A stretch of 64,000 nucleotides of DNA from Candidatus Omnitrophota bacterium (lineage in GTDB: Bacteria; Omnitrophota; Gorgyraeia; Zapsychrales; Fredricksoniimonadaceae): contig JADFXX010000004.1 of NCBI GenBank assembly GCA_015233335.1, forward strand, positions 15,237-79,236, read 5' to 3'. This document shows, piece by piece, positions 3,700 to 30,621 of the stretch. Within the stretch, counting starts at the first letter, position 1, and the number at the start of each line of letters is the position of its first letter. The position numbers were made by a program, and so were the translations under genes. The notes beneath the pieces are model-generated. The model saw only the letters and a list, made by a program, of their open reading frames with translations, was not told the DNA's origin and made no database searches.

Positions 3700-4809
3700 A
3701 TGCGTATCATAGATCGATATATTCTAAAATCTATCCTGACCATTTTTGCGGGAACTGTCTTTACCTTTGCATTTTTATTTATCCTTATTGATATGTTCGG
3801 CAACCTCCAGGACTTCATTGCAAAAAACGTAAGCTTAGGCGTCATCGTTCAGTATTATGTTTCCTTCTTACCGACCATTACTGTCCAGACCTCCACCATG
3901 GCCTGCTTGATCGCTGTCCTTTTTACCTACAGTAATCTGAATGCCCACAATGAGATCATTGCCATACGCGCCTCGGGCATGAATTTCTGGCAGATCACCC
4001 GCCCTGCGCTGGTGTTTGCCATTTTTGTCTGTGCACTGGTATTTTTGGTGAATGAAAAATTTGTGCCGCAATCCTCGATGATGAATCAGGAGATCCGGGA
4101 CACTCAAATCAAGGTTGTCCCATCACAAAAAGGCCGCGGTAAGCCCATTATCCATAATCTCACTTTTTACGGCCTCAAGAACCGTTTGTTTTTTATAGAC
4201 CTCTTCGACCCCAACACTAATGAACTAACCGGTGTCACTATCATCGGCCACGATCATCAGCAAAACCTAGTTGAAAAAATCACGGCCCTTAAAGGTAAGT
4301 GGACGGGGATCGCCTGGAAATTCTTCAACTGTCAGATTACATCCTATAAACCGTTATTACCTAATATTTCCGGAGATATGAAAATATCATCGGAAAAACT
4401 GATGGATATCAGAGAAACCCCCCAGGATTTTCTCAAACAAAGGATGGATGTGTCCTCTATGAACCTGCGGGCGCTCCACGATTATATCAAACGCTTTTCA
4501 GGCAGTGGCGCAATCAAAACGATCAACAATCTGAGGGTCAATCTCCATCAGAAAATCACCCTGCCTTTGCGTAATTTCGTTATTATTTTGATCGGTCTGC
4601 CCTTAGTGCTCATGTCGGTGGGAAAACGCCGGGCCATGACATTTACCTCTATTGCCATTGCCCTGGTCATCGGATTTCTCTATTATGTTGCGGATGCAGT
4701 AGGTTTGGCCTTAGCTAAGGGCGGCGCTTTATTGCCTTGGGAAGGCGCATGGATCACTCCCATCTTATTTACCCTCATGGCCCTCTTCATTATTCTCAGG
4801 AGTTTTTAG
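3700..4809 (+). CDS. lptG: LPS export ABC permease, LptF/LptG family (second subunit)
   Basis: The track ORF 3595..4809 overlaps lptF. The start is trimmed to ATG 3700 (MRIIDRYILKSILTIF...), the canonical family N-terminus. Contains the NEIIAIRASGM motif. Confidence 0.75.
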   Translation: MRIIDRYILKSILTIFAGTVFTFAFLFILIDMFGNLQDFIAKNVSLGVIVQYYVSFLPTITVQTSTMACLIAVLFTYSNLNAHNEIIAIRASGMNFWQITRPALVFAIFVCALVFLVNEKFVPQSSMMNQEIRDTQIKVVPSQKGRGKPIIHNLTFYGLKNRLFFIDLFDPNTNELTGVTIIGHDHQQNLVEKITALKGKWTGIAWKFFNCQITSYKPLLPNISGDMKISSEKLMDIRETPQDFLKQRMDVSSMNLRALHDYIKRFSGSGAIKTINNLRVNLHQKITLPLRNFVIILIGLPLVLMSVGKRRAMTFTSIAIALVIGFLYYVADAVGLALAKGGALLPWEGAWITPILFTLMALFIILRSF

Positions 4810-15190: not shown

Positions 15191-15670
15191 TTATTTTGTC
15201 TTCAAAAGCACAACGGCATACGCGGCCATACCCTCTTGGGCGCCTATAAAACCCATTCCTTCATTGGTCCCGGCTTTAATGTTGACCTGGGAGGCCTCCA
15301 GTGCCAGCATACCCGCGATATTGTCCCTCATTTTTGATTTGTACGCCTGTAATTTCGGTTCTTGGGCCAAAATCATCACGTCGATATTTTCCACAACCCG
15401 ACCTGTATCTTGCACCATTTTGTATGTCTGCTTTAAAAAAACCGAACTGGACAGCCCCTTATATTTTAGATCGGTATTAGGAAAATGTTCCCCGATATCA
15501 CCTAAACCCGCAGCCCCTAAAAGGGCATCGCAAAGGGCATGCAAGACCACGTCCGCATCCGAATGTCCGTCAAGACCATGGGTGTGCGCCACTTCGATGC
15601 CGCCTAACATCAACTTGCGGCCGAATAGAAACCGGTGCACATCATGACCAAAACCTACCCTGAAGCTCAT
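15191..15670 (-). CDS. ispF: 2-C-methyl-D-erythritol 2,4-cyclodiphosphate synthase
   Basis: The track ORF is trimmed to ATG 15670 ([14 protein letters not shown]...), the canonical IspF start. ATGA overlap with the ispD stop. Confidence 0.9.
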
Positions 15671-16362
15671 AACGACCTCAATAACAATTGCCGCGCTAAC
15701 GTAATATCTTCCGGCGTTGTGACCTTGATATTGCGATAACTGCCCATGACCATCTGAACGCACACCCCCATACGTTCGACTAGAATCGCATCATCGGTAG
15801 CTTCTTCTTTATGTTTTCGAGCATGGGCCTTAACTAAAACATCCTTATGAAACCCCTGAGGTGTCTGCGCCTCCCACAATAAATCCCTCGGAGGAGTTTC
15901 TTTAATATCTAAAGTTTGACGATCGACCTTTTTAACAGTGAACTTGACCGGCACACCCGCTATGGCCGCTTTATTTTTTTTCAATGAAAAGAGTAAACGG
16001 TTGATCATGGCACGGTCAACAAAAGGCCTTGCCGCATCATGCACCAGAACTATACCGGTATCAGACGAAATTACCTTTAAACCGCACTTAACTGAATCCG
16101 CACGCAACTTGCCGCCAGCTACGACCAGACGTACTTTTTTAAATGCACCGGCCATACGGACAAATTGTGCCAAATGTCCCGCCGGTGCGACAATCACTAT
16201 GCTATCGATCAGGGCATGTGCCTCAAAAACCTTCAAACTATACGCTAATAAAGGCTTGCCTTTGAGCAAAACCAACGCTTTAGGAACATCCGCCTTCAAA
16301 CGCCGCCCCAAACCGGCAGCTACTACAATAACTTCGGTTTTCATTTTTAAGATAGTTGCCAA
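15667..16362 (-). CDS. ispD: 2-C-methyl-D-erythritol 4-phosphate cytidylyltransferase
   Basis: 231 aa. VIVVAAGLGRRLKADVPKALV N-terminal motif. Confidence 0.9.
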   Translation of the reverse strand: MATILKMKTEVIVVAAGLGRRLKADVPKALVLLKGKPLLAYSLKVFEAHALIDSIVIVAPAGHLAQFVRMAGAFKKVRLVVAGGKLRADSVKCGLKVISSDTGIVLVHDAARPFVDRAMINRLLFSLKKNKAAIAGVPVKFTVKKVDRQTLDIKETPPRDLLWEAQTPQGFHKDVLVKAHARKHKEEATDDAILVERMGVCVQMVMGSYRNIKVTTPEDITLARQLLLRSL

Positions 16363-16390
16363 ATTATGTCGTTTGTGCGGGGCCTGTCTC

Positions 16391-16502
16391 GGAGTTGATG
16401 TTAAGGTGCTCCTGATTCACCTTCGTTTACAGAAGCCCTATAAAAAGGGTTTCCCTTATTCGCCCCAAAATCAGTCACCGTCCGCCCCTTAACATCAACT
16501 CC
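16391..16502. repeat. 112-nt element bounded by a perfect 16-bp inverted repeat (element E)
   Basis: ggagttgatgttaagg (16391-16406) is the exact reverse complement of ccttaacatcaactcc (16487-16502). Inner pairings are ctgatt/aatcag and a ccct-ataaaa-aggg hairpin. Confidence 0.6.
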
Positions 16503-16560
16503 AAGCCACCCGCTAATCGTATTACGATCTTAACTACATTTCTATAATACTCAAAGAAGG

Positions 16561-16768
16561 GATAAAGTTGTTATTTTCAACTCACTGTCATTTTTAGTTA
16601 AAAATTGACTGTTTTTTAGGGAATCCCGAACCGTAGGGTGAGGGATGGCTGAACTTGTTTGAGCCTGAAGCTTCCAGAGAAGCTGAAGGCGAGTTGTTCA
16701 GCCACCTAAAAAATAGGCAATTTTTAACGTTAAGAAAATGACCGTGAGTTGAAAATAACAACTTTATC
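16561..16768. repeat. 208-nt multi-stem palindromic element, family 1 copy 1 (element A)
   Basis: 34-position outer stem (16561-16594/16735-16768, 1 mismatch), 23-position second stem, 25-nt one-sided bulge, 9-bp stem, and an apical 12-position stem with a tandem G.A and a caga loop (16675-16678). Paralog at 26546-26774. Confidence 0.7.
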
Positions 16769-16800
16769 TCCTCTTGCACGCTATCAAAATACAAGGCAGG

Positions 16801-17784
16801 TTACTGCCTTTCCATTTTAGCGAAAATCATCCGGCCGGCCTGGGTTTGCAGAGCTGAGGTCACAAAGACCTTGACCGTCTGCCCCAGAGCCCTGCGTCCG
16901 TCGCTCACCACCACCATGGTCCCGTCTTCCAAATAACCGATGGCCTGACTGGCCTCCTTGCCTTCCTTCAAAAGCCGGATCTCTAATTCTTCACCGGTAA
17001 AAACAACAGGCTTGACCGCGTTGACCAGATCATTGACATTGAGCATTTCAACACCCTGGATCGCGGCAATGCGGCTCAAATTAAAATCTGTCGTGCAGAT
17101 ACGGGCATCCATCAGTTTGGAAAGTTTGACGAGCTTTAAGTCCACCGCTTCAGAACCGCCAAAATCATCTTCATGAATACGCACATCCGCTGAGGAGTCT
17201 TTCTGCATATTTTTTAGAATTTCCATCCCCCGACGGCCGCGCTGGCGCTTGGTCTCATCCTCGGAATCAGCCAGCCTTTGCAATTCATGCAAAACAAAAC
17301 GGGGGACCACCAATCGTCCTCCCAAAAACCCTGTCTTAAAAATATCACTCACCCGCCCATCAATAATGGCACTGGTATCCAAAAGCACGACCCCGTCTTT
17401 TAATTCCTGGCGCTTAAAGCGCACGTAAGGAATGATGAGGTTAAATTCATCCTTGCCCCGAAGCGCCATCACCGCGCCCAAATAGGAAAAAGAAAGCGTC
17501 AGAATCACCCGCAGGATGGGTTTGAGCACATCCCCCAACGGCAGGAGAAAAAGGATGTCCGCCACTAAATTGGCCATAAAAATTCCAAGCAGCAGACCAA
17601 AAACCATGCTGGAAAGTCCGCGCACAGATACCTGCTTTAAAGTCGCCTCAACGGTAATCAGCAGTAACCCGCCTAAAACTCCCATCAAAACACCTGCCAG
17701 AGGGTGCTGATCAATACTCCCTACCTGATAACCGATAATGCCGCTGAGAATAGTAAAAAAAATGCGAATAAATAATAATGTCAT
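16801..17784 (-). CDS. yacL: Membrane-anchored PIN and TRAM domain protein (YacL family)
   Basis: 327 aa. N-terminal TM helices, a PIN-like core (VLLDTSAIIDGR), and a C-terminal TRAM-like beta domain. Follows radA as in Bacillus. Confidence 0.8.
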   Translation of the reverse strand: MTLLFIRIFFTILSGIIGYQVGSIDQHPLAGVLMGVLGGLLLITVEATLKQVSVRGLSSMVFGLLLGIFMANLVADILFLLPLGDVLKPILRVILTLSFSYLGAVMALRGKDEFNLIIPYVRFKRQELKDGVVLLDTSAIIDGRVSDIFKTGFLGGRLVVPRFVLHELQRLADSEDETKRQRGRRGMEILKNMQKDSSADVRIHEDDFGGSEAVDLKLVKLSKLMDARICTTDFNLSRIAAIQGVEMLNVNDLVNAVKPVVFTGEELEIRLLKEGKEASQAIGYLEDGTMVVVSDGRRALGQTVKVFVTSALQTQAGRMIFAKMERQ

Positions 17785-17801: not shown

Positions 17802-19175
17802 TTATAACTTATCTAACGCTTCCCGCAGCCCCGCCACCGGGATCAAATGAATATGAGACGGCTTAAAATCATTCTTTCCTTTAAAATTATTTTTCGGAAC
17901 AATACACCGGGTAAATCCGAGTTTCTGGGCTTCATTGACCCGTGCTGCCAATTGCGATACGCTCCTGACCTCAGCGGAAAGGCCGACCTCTCCTAAAATG
18001 GCCGTGTCATGAGGCACCACCTTATCTAATAAAGCAGATGCGACGCTCACACTAACGCCCAAATCAGCGGCGGGATCTATCACCTTAACCCCGCCCACGA
18101 CGTTCAAAAAAATGTCCTTATCCCCCAAATTAAGCCCCAGCCGCTTCTCCAATACCGCGACAAGCAGGCTCAAACGGTTAGGGTCAAAACCCTGGGCTTT
18201 CTGCCGCACCATACCAAAAGCGCTGCGCGCAACCAGCCCCTGGATTTCAACCAAAAAAGGCCGGGTGCCCTCTAAAATAGGCACGACCACTGAACCCGAA
18301 GAATCTGTGGGCCTCTCACAAAGAAAAATCTCAGAAGGGTTTAAAACTTCCTGCAACCCCCACGCCGTCATCTCGAAAACACCGATCTCATTGGTGGAAC
18401 CAAAACGGTTCTTATTGGCCCGCAGCACACGGTAAGACGAATATCGTTCCCCCTCAAAATAAAGCACCGTGTCAACCATATGCTCCAGCACCCGCGGGCC
18501 TGCGAGCATCCCCTCCTTGGTGACATGGCCGATAAGAAAAAGCGAAAAACCTCTGGATTTAGCCAGCTGGGTCAGGACCGCGGCACTTTCCCTGACCTGG
18601 GCGACTGAACCCGGAGACGAGGAAAATTCAGCCAAGTGCACCACCTGAATGGAATCAATGATCACCACTTGGGGCTTAAGTTCATGAATATACCCGCTAA
18701 TCGTCTCAACATCGATTTCATTGACAATGAAAAGATGCTCGTTGGCCGCCTGTGCCACACGGTCGGCCCTCATCTTGGCCTGTTTGACAGATTCTTCCCC
18801 GCTGACATACAAAACTTTTAAACCTGCCTGGGCTAAAGCACAGCCGGCCTGCAAAACAATGGTCGATTTGCCGATCCCCGGATCCCCGCCGATCAAGGTC
18901 ACCGAGCCTGCAACTATGCCTCCGCCCATGACCCTGTCAAATTCCCCGATCTGTGTTAAATGACGTTTTTCAAGGGCCAGGTCAACTTCTTTTAAAAGAA
19001 CAGGTAATACGGCCGCTTGCGCTGCGATCTGGTCGCGCATTTTTCCGGACCCTTCCCGCAGGGTCGATGTCTCTTCAACATAGGAATTCCATTCCTCGCA
19101 ATTGGGGCATTTCCCCACCCAGCGCGCGGATTGAGAACCACAACTCTGACAAACAAACAATGTCTTGGTCTTCAT
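17802..19175 (-). CDS. radA: DNA repair protein RadA/Sms
   Basis: 457 aa. N-terminal zinc finger CQSCGSQSARWVGKCPNC, Walker A GDPGIGKST, and a Lon-like C-terminal domain. Confidence 0.95.
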   Translation of the reverse strand: MKTKTLFVCQSCGSQSARWVGKCPNCEEWNSYVEETSTLREGSGKMRDQIAAQAAVLPVLLKEVDLALEKRHLTQIGEFDRVMGGGIVAGSVTLIGGDPGIGKSTIVLQAGCALAQAGLKVLYVSGEESVKQAKMRADRVAQAANEHLFIVNEIDVETISGYIHELKPQVVIIDSIQVVHLAEFSSSPGSVAQVRESAAVLTQLAKSRGFSLFLIGHVTKEGMLAGPRVLEHMVDTVLYFEGERYSSYRVLRANKNRFGSTNEIGVFEMTAWGLQEVLNPSEIFLCERPTDSSGSVVVPILEGTRPFLVEIQGLVARSAFGMVRQKAQGFDPNRLSLLVAVLEKRLGLNLGDKDIFLNVVGGVKVIDPAADLGVSVSVASALLDKVVPHDTAILGEVGLSAEVRSVSQLAARVNEAQKLGFTRCIVPKNNFKGKNDFKPSHIHLIPVAGLREALDKL

Positions 19176-20673: not shown

Positions 20674-20790
20674 TAAAGACATTGGGATAATTTATGGAGC
20701 TAAAATGCGTGCTTTTGCCGCCCGACTTATCCAGGAATCAAACTAAGGCAATTAGCATTTTGGCGGAATAAATTCATCCCAATGTCTTTA
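20674..20790. repeat. 117-nt palindromic element, family 2 copy 1 (element D1), between mlaE and mlaF
   Basis: 15-bp perfect outer inverted repeat (20674-20688/20776-20790), then 7-bp, a 6x6 loop, and 7-bp. The 60-nt core 20702-20761 is 54/60 identical to 27529-27588. Confidence 0.7.
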
Positions 20791-25067: not shown

Positions 25068-25613
25068 TTAATCTTTCTGTTCTAAATTCCTGATTTTATC
25101 CCGGATCTCGGCTGCCCGCTCGAAATCTTCGGCCGCAATAGCCGACTGCAGCTGCTCTTTTAACCCCTCCAAGGTCTCGGTTACAACTAAAAGAGGGCGC
25201 TCTTCTTTCGACGAAGCCGCTAAATTCTCTTTTTGAAATGAAGACGGTGTTTTCCCTAAATATTTATTCGAACCGTGGATCTTGCGCAACAGCCCGCTTA
25301 AATGCTCCTTAAAAGAGGTGTAGCATTCACTGCAGCCTAACCGACCAAACTTACGGAAATCCTCATAAGGCAATGCACAACGGGAGCATTGCAAGGGATT
25401 TTTCTCGTTCTCTTTCGAAGAAGCAGGCTTGACGGTATCTGATAATCCTGCTAATAAATCTGCCAGACCGAATTGCTGCTCCATCTGAGCACTTTTTTGA
25501 CGGGCGCATTCTTCGCACAAATGCATCTCCGACATCTGCTCATCGACAATTTCAGTCAAATGCACAGTTGCTTTTTTCTTACCGCAAATATCACAGGTCA
25601 TATTTGACGCCAT
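25068..25613 (-). CDS. mcsA: McsA (zinc-finger plus UVR-motif activator of McsB)
   Basis: 181 aa. CDICGKK...CEEC and CSRC...CSEC zinc motifs. C-terminal UVR motif EDFERAAEIRDKIRNLE. Confidence 0.8.
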   Translation of the reverse strand: MASNMTCDICGKKKATVHLTEIVDEQMSEMHLCEECARQKSAQMEQQFGLADLLAGLSDTVKPASSKENEKNPLQCSRCALPYEDFRKFGRLGCSECYTSFKEHLSGLLRKIHGSNKYLGKTPSSFQKENLAASSKEERPLLVVTETLEGLKEQLQSAIAAEDFERAAEIRDKIRNLEQKD

Positions 25614-26460
25614 CTTTTTTAGTCAGCTGATGGAAGTTATCTAACAATTTACGTGTTACGGCCCCCGGACGGCCGTCCCCGATCAAACGTCCGTCAACCT
25701 TAACCACAGGGATTAATTCCGCCGCAGTCCCGGTCAGGAAACATTCCTTAGCATTATACAATTCATGCCGGGTCATATAACCTTCCGACACCTTGATCTT
25801 CATCTTTCGGGCTAATTCCAGGATCGCCTCACAGGTAATACCTTTTAAACGGCCCAAATGTGGGGTCGAAAGCACCCCGTTTTTATAGATGAACACATTG
25901 TCCCCCGTGCATTCGGCGATATATCCGTTTTCCTCCAACATGATCGCCTCGTTATAACCGCAATGAGAAGCCTCCATCTTAGCCAGAATGTTATTGAGAT
26001 AATTCAGCGACTTAAGCTGAGGATTTAAGGCATTCGGATGGTTCTTGACCGTCGGCACAGTGATGATCTCCATTCCCTTCTGATAAAGTTGGACCGGATA
26101 TAAAACGATCTTGTCGGCAATGATGATCACATTGGGCTTTCCGAAGCATTTACGCGGATCAAGACCCAGATCCCCATCGCCGCGGCTGACGACCAGACGG
26201 ATGTAGCCGTCTTTGATCTTATTGGCCTTCAACGTAGCCACGACCGCATCGATCATTTCCTTCTTGGTCATACGAGGGTCGATCATGAGCGTGTGCAGTG
26301 TTTCAAATAAACGGTCGATATGTTCTTTGAGGCGAAATACCCGCGAATCATACGAACGGATCCCCTCAAAACCGCCGTCCCCATAAAGAAACCCATGGTC
26401 AAACACCGACACCTTGGCGTTTTCCTTGTCCACCAGTTTTCCATTAAGGTAAATCTTCAT
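25591..26460 (-). CDS. ilvE: Branched-chain-amino-acid aminotransferase (class IV aminotransferase)
   Basis: 289 aa. ...VSVFDHGFLYGDGGFEGIR... is typical of fold-type IV IlvE. 23-nt overlap with mcsA. Confidence 0.85.
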   Translation of the reverse strand: MKIYLNGKLVDKENAKVSVFDHGFLYGDGGFEGIRSYDSRVFRLKEHIDRLFETLHTLMIDPRMTKKEMIDAVVATLKANKIKDGYIRLVVSRGDGDLGLDPRKCFGKPNVIIIADKIVLYPVQLYQKGMEIITVPTVKNHPNALNPQLKSLNYLNNILAKMEASHCGYNEAIMLEENGYIAECTGDNVFIYKNGVLSTPHLGRLKGITCEAILELARKMKIKVSEGYMTRHELYNAKECFLTGTAAELIPVVKVDGRLIGDGRPGAVTRKLLDNFHQLTKKDGVKYDL

Positions 26461-26545
26461 AATCTCCCTTTCGCTCTTACTCCGTGAAGGATGAATAGCT
26501 GTTCACCCACGCAAATCTACTTAGCACCTCTATTTTCATTATATA

Positions 26546-26774
26546 AGACCGTAGGACTAAATTTGTTATTTTTGATCCTGTGTCGTTTTTAGCCAAGAAA
26601 TTTATGATAACGAGGTCCTTTTAGGGCTTCAGCCTTAAAATGGTCAAACTTGTTTGAGCTCGAAGCTTCCAGAGAAGCTGAGAGCGAGTTGTTTGACCAC
26701 CTCGTCAGCACAGGTTTTTTGGCGTTAAGAAAACGACCTCAGGATCAAAAATAACAAATTTAGCCCTAAGGTCT
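26546..26774. repeat. 229-nt multi-stem palindromic element, family 1 copy 2 (element B)
   Basis: About 44-nt arms (26546-26589/26730-26774; 2 mismatches, one 1x2 loop). It has the same internal-loop residues (tag / cgttaag), the same 9-bp stem and the same apical module as element A. Apical loop 26670-26673. Confidence 0.7.
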
Positions 26775-26798: not shown

Positions 26799-27479
26799 TT
26801 ATTTCGAAAGCACCGGAGTCTCCAGCAAGCCGTCTTTCATGGCGATCACCCGCTGGGTGCGGCTGGCTATTTTTTCATCGTGCGTCACGATGACGACCGT
26901 CACCCTGTGACTGTGATTAAGCCCTAAAAGCGTGTCCATGACCGCATGACCGCTCACCGAATCCAGATTGCCGGTCGGCTCATCGCAAAAAACGACCTTA
27001 GGCCCGTTCATCAAAGCACGCGCGATTGCCACCCTCTGCTGCTCGCCGCCGGAAAGCTGATTGGGCCTATGTAAAGCACGCGGTCCCAAGCCTAACTGAT
27101 CTAATAATTTTAACCCCGCAAATTCAATTGTGCTTGTTTTTCTTGAATTTTCTTTGATCATGGCCGGCAGGACCACATTTTCCAGCGCCGTTAATTCCGG
27201 CAACAAATGATACGATTGAAATACAAAACCCATTTCAGTATTGCGGGCCTGGGCACGCTTAACATCCGTCAGACCATATAAATTCTGGCCCCTAAAGATT
27301 ACCTGTCCTTCATTAGGCAGATCCAAACCGCCTAAAATATGAAGTAAAGTGGATTTTCCCGCACCCGAAGGTCCTGATATAGCTACGACCTCTCCTGCAT
27401 CAATGCTCAGGTCCACACCTTTAAGTACATGCAAAGGACCGGGGTATGCTTTGTGAATATTGATAGCTTCAATTAACAT
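26799..27479 (-). CDS. lolD: Lipoprotein-releasing system ATP-binding protein LolD
   Basis: 226 aa. Walker [10 protein letters not shown], signature LSGGEQQR, Walker B VFCDEPT. Downstream of an FtsX/LolCE-type permease. Confidence 0.8.
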
Positions 27480-27506
27480 TATGAAATCCCCTATGCGTCA
27501 AATAGG

Positions 27507-27610
27507 CATTGAGATAATTTTTTTAGACAAAATGCGTGCTTTTGCCGCCCAACTTATCCAAGAATAAAACTAAGGTATTTAGTATTTTAGCTGAAAAAAT
27601 TATCCCAACG
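27507..27610. repeat. 104-nt palindromic element, family 2 copy 2 (element D2), between lolC/E and lolD
   Basis: Outer inverted repeat cattgagataattttt / aaaaattatcccaacg (2 mismatches). The core 27529-27588 is 90 percent identical to D1. Confidence 0.7.
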
Positions 27611-27626
27611 ACTGTTTAATCCCATC

Positions 27627-30452: not shown

Positions 30453-30621
30453 GGATGAACAGCTATTATGTATGCGGCACATTAAGGAATTTTTCGCCAA
30501 AAGTCTTCTTAATTTTACTGCAAGAATGTTCCAAATAAAGAGAATCTTTAGAGCATTGTTGCCGTAAATTTAAGAAGACGGCGAAAATATTCCGTGCCGC
30601 ATACATAATAGCTGTTCATCC
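30453..30621. repeat. 169-nt near-perfect hairpin element (element C) immediately 3' of recQ
   Basis: 28-bp perfect terminal stem (30453-30480/30594-30621). Then a 13-bp and a 14-position stem separated by attaa and aaaa bulges. The roughly 49-nt centre is itself partly self-complementary. Confidence 0.75.

Follow-up and report, generated by a model that had tools for sequence, protein, structure and literature searches.

A covarying, strand-specific hairpin repeat family dispersed among housekeeping genes of Omnitrophota

Introduction

REPINs, which are mobilised by RAYTs, are long hairpins of approximately 70-110 nt in which two conserved terminal REP 16-mers flank a variable central spacer; compensatory changes across the hairpin are common, and a single-stranded DNA intermediate has been proposed (Bertels & Rainey 2011, PMC3116915). 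The bcr1, ERIC, and Correia repeats are transcribed hairpin repeats, and bcr1 (approximately 155 bp, Bacillus cereus group) shows compensatory changes that keep a multi-helix fold, which has been read at the RNA level (PMC3184786). The copies of bcr1 are flanked by 5-bp direct repeats. ERIC, Correia (NEMIS), and RUP elements are imperfect palindromes over their whole length (100-230 bp) that lie in intergenic DNA in both orientations. Their sites are polymorphic for insertion, and effects on mRNA processing and operon structure are possible; these elements have conserved terminal inverted repeats (TIRs) and TA or short target duplications, and Correia and RUP have plausible IS partners. The ends of IS200/IS605 elements and their PATE derivatives are imperfect DNA hairpins that are recognised on one specific strand, and they have neither TIRs nor target-site duplications. 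The IS200/IS605 hairpins are subterminal and approximately 20-30 nt long, and insertion occurs beside a fixed tetra- or pentanucleotide with lagging-strand-template orientation.

Omnitrophota are uncultured, widespread, and often ultra-small bacteria. To our knowledge, neither their repeat content nor their non-coding RNAs have been described, and a literature search on both subjects found nothing. Here, we describe family 1, a repeat unit of approximately 215-230 nt found in Omnitrophota metagenome-assembled genomes (MAGs) and in peat and freshwater metagenomes, whose nearest counterparts, by analogy, would be REPINs, IS200/IS605 ends, bcr1, and ERIC.

Like REPINs, family 1 is non-coding, multicopy, and intergenic, makes one long hairpin as single-stranded DNA or RNA, shows compensatory changes across that hairpin, and lacks a classical target-site duplication. 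Both leave singlets or fragments as decay remnants, cluster with other repeats, and apparently persist within bacterial lineages and not in phages or plasmids. Family 1 is longer than a REPIN and has a conserved apex with variable termini, whereas REPINs have conserved termini and a variable centre; furthermore, no REP-like self-palindrome was seen in either arm, a GTAG/CGTC tag does not occur as a rule (consensus GTAAG), and no RAYT gene was found in the 344 kb checked. With bcr1, family 1 shares an interspersed, intergenic distribution that is not conserved between relatives and a multi-helix fold kept by compensatory changes; it belongs to another phylum, has another sequence, is known from sequence alone, and showed no flanking direct repeats. 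It resembles ERIC, Correia, and RUP in all of the general properties given above, whereas the conserved TIRs, the target duplications, and the IS partners were not found for family 1, and we know of no described counterpart among these elements of its three-way junction with repeated tandem G.A steps. With IS200/IS605 ends, family 1 would share the strand-specific recognition of an imperfect hairpin, and it resembles them in that neither target-site duplications nor classical TIRs were seen. Unlike their short hairpins, family 1 is a single hairpin of approximately 220 nt that spans the whole unit, with no fixed flanking motif seen and no orientation bias.

With no duplication and no conserved TIR seen, family 1 appears distinct from classical MITEs, and conservation that seems centred on the apex and not on the ends sets it apart from REPINs. 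We place it no more narrowly than among bacterial intergenic hairpin repeats, where it is a new and previously uncatalogued family within the known class of small intergenic mobile repeats. Its insertion polymorphism, fragments, internal deletions, and clustering with other repeats constitute mobile-repeat behaviour, and family 1 is probably an interspersed repeat, non-autonomous and of the ERIC/bcr1/REPIN/MITE type, that is propagated or retained only through a strand-specific single-stranded hairpin.

Results and Discussion

Genomic context and structure

The window is the whole 64,000-nt stretch of DNA that was analysed, a housekeeping region with rpoBC, ribosomal protein genes, clpC/mcsAB, and mla and lol genes, and no mobile-element gene was found in these 64 kb. 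GC skew on the plus strand ranged from -0.10 to -0.16 throughout positions 1-64000, and nearly all genes lie on the minus strand; given the uniformly negative skew, the minus strand is taken as the leading strand. For 64 kb of one replichore, this strand bias is unusually strong and uniform.

The original prediction placed a multi-stem palindrome at 16561-16768, between yacL (16801-17784; PIN/TRAM, PF27675) and ispD (15667-16362). These flanking genes were correctly named and, like radA (17802-19175), lie on the minus strand. The full inverted repeat extends beyond the predicted limits, and its arms (16554-16594/16735-16775) are 93% complementary. No coding sequence accounts for the stretch, as had been claimed: the only ORF there (66 aa, 16594-16794, minus strand) is an artefact of the palindrome and not a small gene, and no conserved small ORF was found in the family-1 copies. 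The proposed relative at 26546-26774, here copy 2, is real, with the same architecture on the same strand and with stem differences from copy 1 that are compensated. It is located between lolD (26799-27479, minus strand) and an aminotransferase class IV gene (25591-26460, minus strand). These are the only two family-1 copies in the window; their mean column identity was 80% when the pair was aligned with short flanks, and 63% when the element columns of the family alignment were compared.

Every predicted stem of copy 1 (outer, second, 9-bp, and apical) was recovered at its predicted position in the sequence and by RNAfold on both strands, including the 34 positions of the outer stem with a single mismatch, the 23 positions of the second stem, and the 12 positions of the apical stem with a GA/GA step and a 4-nt CAGA loop; the asymmetric internal loop was also as described (Table 1). 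The 25 nt at 16621-16645 had been called a bulge, which proved wrong, since they form a conserved side hairpin and are not unstructured. Because of this hairpin, copy 1 is predicted to be a three-way junction and no simple rod; a different side hairpin is present at the same position in copy 2 and in one subfamily. Within the core, the 9-bp stem is TGGCTGAAC/GTTCAGCCA (16646-16654/16696-16704), the internal loop is TTGTTTGA/GAGTT, and the apical stem is GCCT-GA-AGCTTC CAGA GAAGCT-GA-AGGC (16663-16674/16679-16690).

RNAfold gave copy 1 a folding energy of -109.3 kcal/mol (z -16.6) on the plus strand and -95.2 kcal/mol (z -15.3) on the minus strand, none of 200 shuffles folded as well, and the z-scores of the two window copies ranged from -14 to -17. 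With DNA parameters, the corresponding energies of copy 1 were -71.4 (plus) and -66.8 (minus), with a z-score of -18.6. The element far exceeds a terminator, as the original prediction held: an intrinsic terminator (a short GC-rich hairpin with a U tract) was ruled out, and the scan placed a separate terminator-like hairpin outside the element.

Table 1. Features of the yacL-ispD spacer and of the two family-1 copies (positions in the window)
Feature	Position	Strand	Remarks
Whole yacL-ispD spacer, 438 nt	16363..16800		absent from 5/7 relatives
Family-1 copy 1, whole inverted repeat	16554..16775	+ (structured strand)	nhmmer 186 bits, E 5e-56
Copy-1 outer stem, left arm	16561..16594	+	pairs with 16735-16768, one T.C mismatch
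Copy-1 asymmetric internal loop, left side TAG	16595..16597	+	TTTAG invariant in 20 aligned copies
Copy-1 second stem, left arm	16598..16620	+	pairs with 16705-16727; subfamily-specific sequence, covarying
Copy-1 side hairpin AUCCC-GA-ACC-GUAG-GGU-GA-GGGAU	16621..16645	+	own tandem G.A step
Copy-1 conserved core	16646..16704	+	most conserved block of the family
Copy-1 second stem, right arm	16705..16727	+	partner of 16598-16620
Copy-1 asymmetric internal loop, right side CGTTAAG	16728..16734	+	CGTT invariant, AAR nearly so, in 20 copies
Copy-1 outer stem, right arm	16735..16768	+	partner of 16561-16594
Bidirectional terminator-like hairpin AAGGCAG-GTTA-CTGCCTT	16793..16810		18 nt downstream of copy 1
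Family-1 copy 2, other subfamily (alternative side hairpin)	26546..26774	+	nhmmer 179 bits

Distribution of the family

The proposed family membership was borne out by pattern scans and nhmmer, which yielded 22 distinct full-length copies, plus fragments, from Omnitrophota MAGs and from peat and freshwater metagenomes. A pattern derived from the apex matched five places in GTDB species genomes (four Omnitrophota MAGs and one MAG labelled Planctomycetales), and a looser pattern gave 18 true matches in metagenome contigs, most of which came from peat and freshwater, with the Ga0182027 series of peat samples contributing most copies; one further locus of that scan, L009, was discarded as a chance match in GC-rich coding DNA. 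An HMM built from 20 copies added the pattern-independent copies L004 4341-4557, L023 898-1117, and L025 14447-14669, as well as fragments. Pattern and sequence searches of viral contigs, phages, and plasmids gave no family-1 match. The copy in the MAG labelled Planctomycetales (L001 6671-6940) is the only one outside Omnitrophota and carries an expansion of approximately 60 nt in the side-hairpin region; it may reflect horizontal transfer or mis-binning.

Pairwise identity among the copies ranged from 57 to 96% (57-76% between the window copies and the rest), and pairing was nearly full in each. The termini follow a loose consensus, (G)CATTGTAAGGGATAAATTTGTTCTTT and its complement. Most copies have the outer-stem segment CUUU-GAA-GC-GA-CUG / CAG-GA-GC-GA-AAAG, with two GA/GA steps, whereas both window copies have plain pairs and copy 1 is fully Watson-Crick there. 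The loop UUUAG / CGUUAAR is invariant, the middle stem is subfamily-specific, and the side hairpin is one of two types. The core reads GGCUGAAC-UUGUUUGA-GCCU-GA-AGCUUC-CAGA-GAAGCU-GA-AGGC-GAGUU-GUUCAGCC.

Housekeeping genes unrelated to one another flank the copies at the different loci, among them pheST, mnmG, ribF, cysS, uvrA, addAB, and dnaK, and copies occur in both orientations. Orientation was approximately 11 antisense to 6 sense relative to neighbouring genes and 14:9 relative to the sign of GC skew, neither split being significant. Up to three copies occurred on one 30-kb contig, and three contigs (L010, L011, and L022) ended inside the element, as is expected of a multicopy repeat. 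At the 3' end of ribF, a site occupied by family 1 in two different genomes, the last part of the reading frame is shared with terminal family-1 sequence (CTGTAAGGGGTAAATTT; L006 ~4371-4385 and L024 ~607-625); ribF appears to run into the repeat, with a TAA of the repeat as its stop codon.

Constraint on fold and strand

RNAalifold analysis of the 20-copy alignment gave 58 pairs, 32 of which showed compensatory double changes, with covarying pairs in the core at alignment columns 111-119/161-169 and 128-139/144-155. Standard pairs filled 96.9% of cells versus 86.5% in shuffles, double-change pairs numbered 32 versus 15.2 +/- 2.2, and the covariation score was 0.337 versus 0.139. None of 500 shuffles reached any of these three values, a count that is not a probability because the copies share ancestry. 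When the pairing partner was slid by 1-3 columns, in controls that retain the relatedness of the copies, pairing fell to 40-53% and double-change pairs to 5-14. The fold of family 1 is under constraint. The original prediction had allowed that an element with no transcript or protein binding and no conservation outside this genome would lack a functional role; conservation in other Omnitrophota genomes is strong and, with the covariation, argues against that view.

That the element folds on either strand, as originally described, is true, yet this is incomplete, since one strand is consistently favoured. All 22 copies folded better on the model strand (mean -106.0 versus -91.4 kcal/mol), which accommodates 52 G-U pairs versus 14 on the complement and carries all of the tandem G.A steps, up to five; part of this asymmetry is inherited and not independent among copies. 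Along the element, the apex is most conserved and the termini are most variable. The search patterns were themselves anchored in the apex, which makes part of this apparent conservation an ascertainment bias. Two pattern-independent copies showed compensated variation in the apex too; Watson-Crick pairs take the place of the GA/GA step and its neighbouring pairs in L004b.

In the orthologous pair L002/L014, the element was 96.5% identical, whereas the flanks averaged approximately 89% (79-97% per 100-nt window), and eight of the nine differences fell in columns unpaired in the consensus structure. From this single pair, purifying selection on individual copies or gene conversion between them seems likelier than neutral decay.

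Several of these features also speak for a structured RNA selected by the host, with mobility only its means of spread. Such an RNA could be a multicopy small RNA gene transcribed from the plus strand with a protein-binding apex, or a cis-acting mRNA module (RNase III target, 3'-end stabiliser, or operon insulator). The covariation is of RNA type, with conserved loops and variable stems; the strand-specific fold with its G-U pairs and tandem sheared G.A steps fits an RNA; and the L002/L014 element has changed more slowly than the flanking coding DNA. A precedent is given by bcr1 and ERIC, whose action is at the RNA level (PMC3184786). We nevertheless regard this explanation as rather unlikely. 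The orientation of copies relative to genes shows no consistent sense or antisense relation, and no Rfam family matches at any threshold: the covariance-model check that had been proposed found none of 4227 families at the gathering threshold anywhere in the window, and the permissive E-value mode, applied to the copy-1 locus and eight other loci, returned only generic miRNA-hairpin noise. A 6S-like RNA and known ribozymes were ruled out on sequence and Rfam grounds. An RNA role selected by the host and mobility are not mutually exclusive.

Insertion polymorphism and decay

Relatives were collected via YacL homologues and their contigs, and seven were sampled; an exact look-up found the YacL of the window not on record. 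Five of the seven have no spacer, the stop codon of yacL overlapping the start of ispD (CAGTAATGAAG or CAGTGAAG). Empty junctions were found at YacL identities of 90% (L025), 88% (L026-L028), 91% (L031), and 89% (L032/L033). At the same junction, L029 (YacL 85%) carries three internally deleted or degenerate mini-copies and L030 an unrelated insert; the junction appears to have been hit repeatedly. At the copy-2 site, relatives have a 60-nt spacer (L029), a family-2 element (L026), or an extra ORF (L025/L032). Judged from these junctions, both window copies are best read as lineage-specific insertions missing from close relatives.

The inserted spacer of the window is composite and contains the terminator-like hairpin, the family-1 copy, a family-4 palindrome, and a promoter-like ispD site. 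The left half of the terminator-like hairpin is the 3' end of yacL, made up of its last codons (AAGGCAGTAA), and the right half, CTGCCTT with a T tract, is absent in relatives, so the inserted DNA would have built the hairpin from the target flank. The insertion plausibly split a translationally coupled yacL-ispD pair into two units, separated by this hairpin and the promoter-like site.

Decay products comprised solo arms (L008, L012, and L024) and the clean internal deletion in L029. Among the filled and empty pairs seen, none was a clean single insertion, and movement of the unit itself is proposed from the polymorphism.

These observations bear on the choice between explanations. Because both window copies are absent in close relatives, neither can be essential, which counts against a host-selected RNA, as does the abundance of truncated and deleted copies. 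Presence/absence polymorphism at orthologous sites and deletion derivatives agree with a classical MITE, that is, double-stranded cut-and-paste by a DDE transposase recognising TIRs, with the hairpin as a by-product of the palindrome. The small size (<~500 bp), the non-coding, multicopy, and intergenic character, and the terminal inverted repeats with their loose consensus point the same way. An ordinary MITE had been put forward in the original prediction as the outcome that would deprive the element of a special role; insertion polymorphism, fragments, and internal deletions were found, whereas target-site duplications and ends matching those of a transposase-bearing IS were not.

Ends and candidate partners

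At approximately 20 copy boundaries, each taken as the point where pairing ends, no target-site duplication and no fixed terminal nucleotide or sequence were found, and pairing ended at varying points. A purine-pyrimidine alternating stretch (ACGCATGC-like) often lies just beyond the ends. In the 344 kb of loci examined, no IS or transposase shared the family-1 ends. A protein-bound TIR would be expected to be conserved in sequence, whereas the family-1 termini vary more than any other part, by compensated changes; moreover, the conserved asymmetric loops, side hairpin, and G.A steps on one strand are unexplained by a double-stranded mechanism. We regard a classical MITE as very unlikely.

Three sets of genes beside family-1 copies were considered as partners and rejected. 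The IS1182/IS5-like DDE transposase by the L011 copy is bounded by ends of its own (CAGACTG...) and interrupts a family-2 element. The T5orf172/MUG113 (GIY-YIG-like) gene by the L005/L025 copy does not recur at other loci, and the genes by the L004 and L021 copies encode unrelated proteins with only a short upstream hairpin repeat in common. A tblastn search of the 344 kb with an approximate IS200 TnpA query gave no Y1 transposase match, and the 64-kb window contained no RAYT (Y1 HUH) gene.

In integron attC sites, structure is conserved, sequence is variable, and extrahelical bases are conserved. The same combination in family 1, and the very stable hairpin obtained with DNA parameters too, would suit a DNA-level structural site kept by the host, such as a cruciform or hairpin for recombination, replication priming, or protein binding (attC-like or sso-like). 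However, an attC site was rejected, as the ends lack the R''/R' cores (RYYYAAC...GTTRRRY), GTTAAG is internal and unpaired, and the neighbours are housekeeping genes with neither an integrase nor a cassette array. Orientation is not tied to GC skew and the sites are dispensable in relatives, and we judge a host-maintained DNA site to be extremely improbable.

Transcription signals gave a mixed picture for the host-selected RNA. On the favourable side, 18 of the 22 copies, among them copy 1 with TATAAT at 16543-16548 (8 nt before it), have -10-like hexamers upstream of the structured strand, compared with 10 of 22 on the opposite side; several of these hexamers are part of a neighbouring family-2 element. 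A terminator-like hairpin also follows copy 1. Against it, no promoter is conserved in position at the flanks of the 22 copies, and a downstream terminator-like hairpin with a T tract occurs in only one of 22, where it is the separate site at 16793-16810.

Returning to the non-autonomous mobile repeat, the reading that we prefer, its course would be as follows. Copies would be gained or lost in intergenic DNA, often at gene junctions, in either orientation and among housekeeping genes, and some would later decay by truncation or internal deletion. The unit preserved would be a single-stranded fold on one strand and not a terminal sequence, with a long covarying stem, an asymmetric loop (UAG / CGUUAAR), a side hairpin, and an apical domain with tandem sheared G.A steps and a CAGA loop. 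The folded strand, as single-stranded DNA or RNA, would be the form recognised by a trans-acting protein that copies or retains the element, and only lineages keeping the hairpin would leave descendants. We infer both that the element moves through a single-stranded hairpin and that a trans-acting partner exists. Counting against a mobile repeat are the absence of duplications, of a fixed terminal sequence, and of a transposase with matching ends in the material examined, a conservation gradient reversed relative to classical MITEs and REPINs, and the slow change of the L002/L014 element; the 14:9 split on GC skew makes a strict IS608-like mechanism a poor fit.

A bolder variant would make family 1 a functional strand-specific RNA of approximately 220 nt (with a three-way junction, a near-invariant apex, and as many as five tandem G.A steps) that acts as a self-spreading "RNA gene", its apex being bound by a dedicated Omnitrophota protein or the RNA serving as its own mobility intermediate (SINE-like/retro-mobile). 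We rate this as distinctly unlikely; if true, it would add a new class of large non-coding RNA, one confined to an uncultured phylum.

Implications and neighbouring repeats

Together with three other palindromic families, family 1 portrays compact, housekeeping-dense Omnitrophota chromosomes as actively remodelled by hairpin repeats, of which the putative splitting of the yacL-ispD pair in this window would be an example. Owing to its strong covariation, defined active strand, and unusually conserved apex, family 1 is a good handle for finding the presumed trans-acting enzyme, and it could test selection as single-stranded DNA versus RNA, a question shared with REPINs and ERIC. On the practical side, such repeats break metagenome assemblies and are possible lineage markers.

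The three other palindromic repeat families cluster with family 1 in the same window. Family 2 (approximately 170 nt, GGATGAACAGCTATTATGTATGCGGCAC...GTGCCGCATACATAATAGCTGTTCATCC) is present at 30453-30621, with a remnant at ~26480-26510, and also at L003, L008, L011, L012, L017, L024, and L026. A full family-1 copy lies 10-15 nt downstream of it in at least four unrelated loci, and a solo family-1 arm is often found on the far side of the family-2 element; this arrangement suggests mutual target preference or a composite moving as a unit. Family 3 occurs at 20674-20790 (between mla genes) and 27500-27617 (between lolD and lolC/E), and these copies are 84% identical. The family-4 palindrome (TGTCTCGGAGTTGATGTTAAGG...CCTTAACATCAACTCC) lies at 16385-16508, beside copy 1 in the inserted spacer, and is a dispersed repeat also found at L026 19529-19664, L027 10534-10669, L017 ~4591-4628, and L021 1909-2043.

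An insertion of approximately 1.1 kb after cysS (L025 14400-15470 and L005 2323-3400), absent in L026, contains a 28-nt REP-like hairpin (GTCATTGCGAGCGCAGCGAAGCAATCTC), a family-1 copy, a CCCCTCTTT...AAAGAGGGG hairpin, and the T5orf172/MUG113 gene mentioned above. Both of its short hairpins recur beside other family-1 copies (L004, L010, L016, and L021). At L011 190-1850, the IS1182/IS5-like DDE element, with ends CAGACTGTGCC.../...CCCAGTCTG, lies inside the right arm of the family-2 element, and the repeats thus act as landing sites for larger IS elements.
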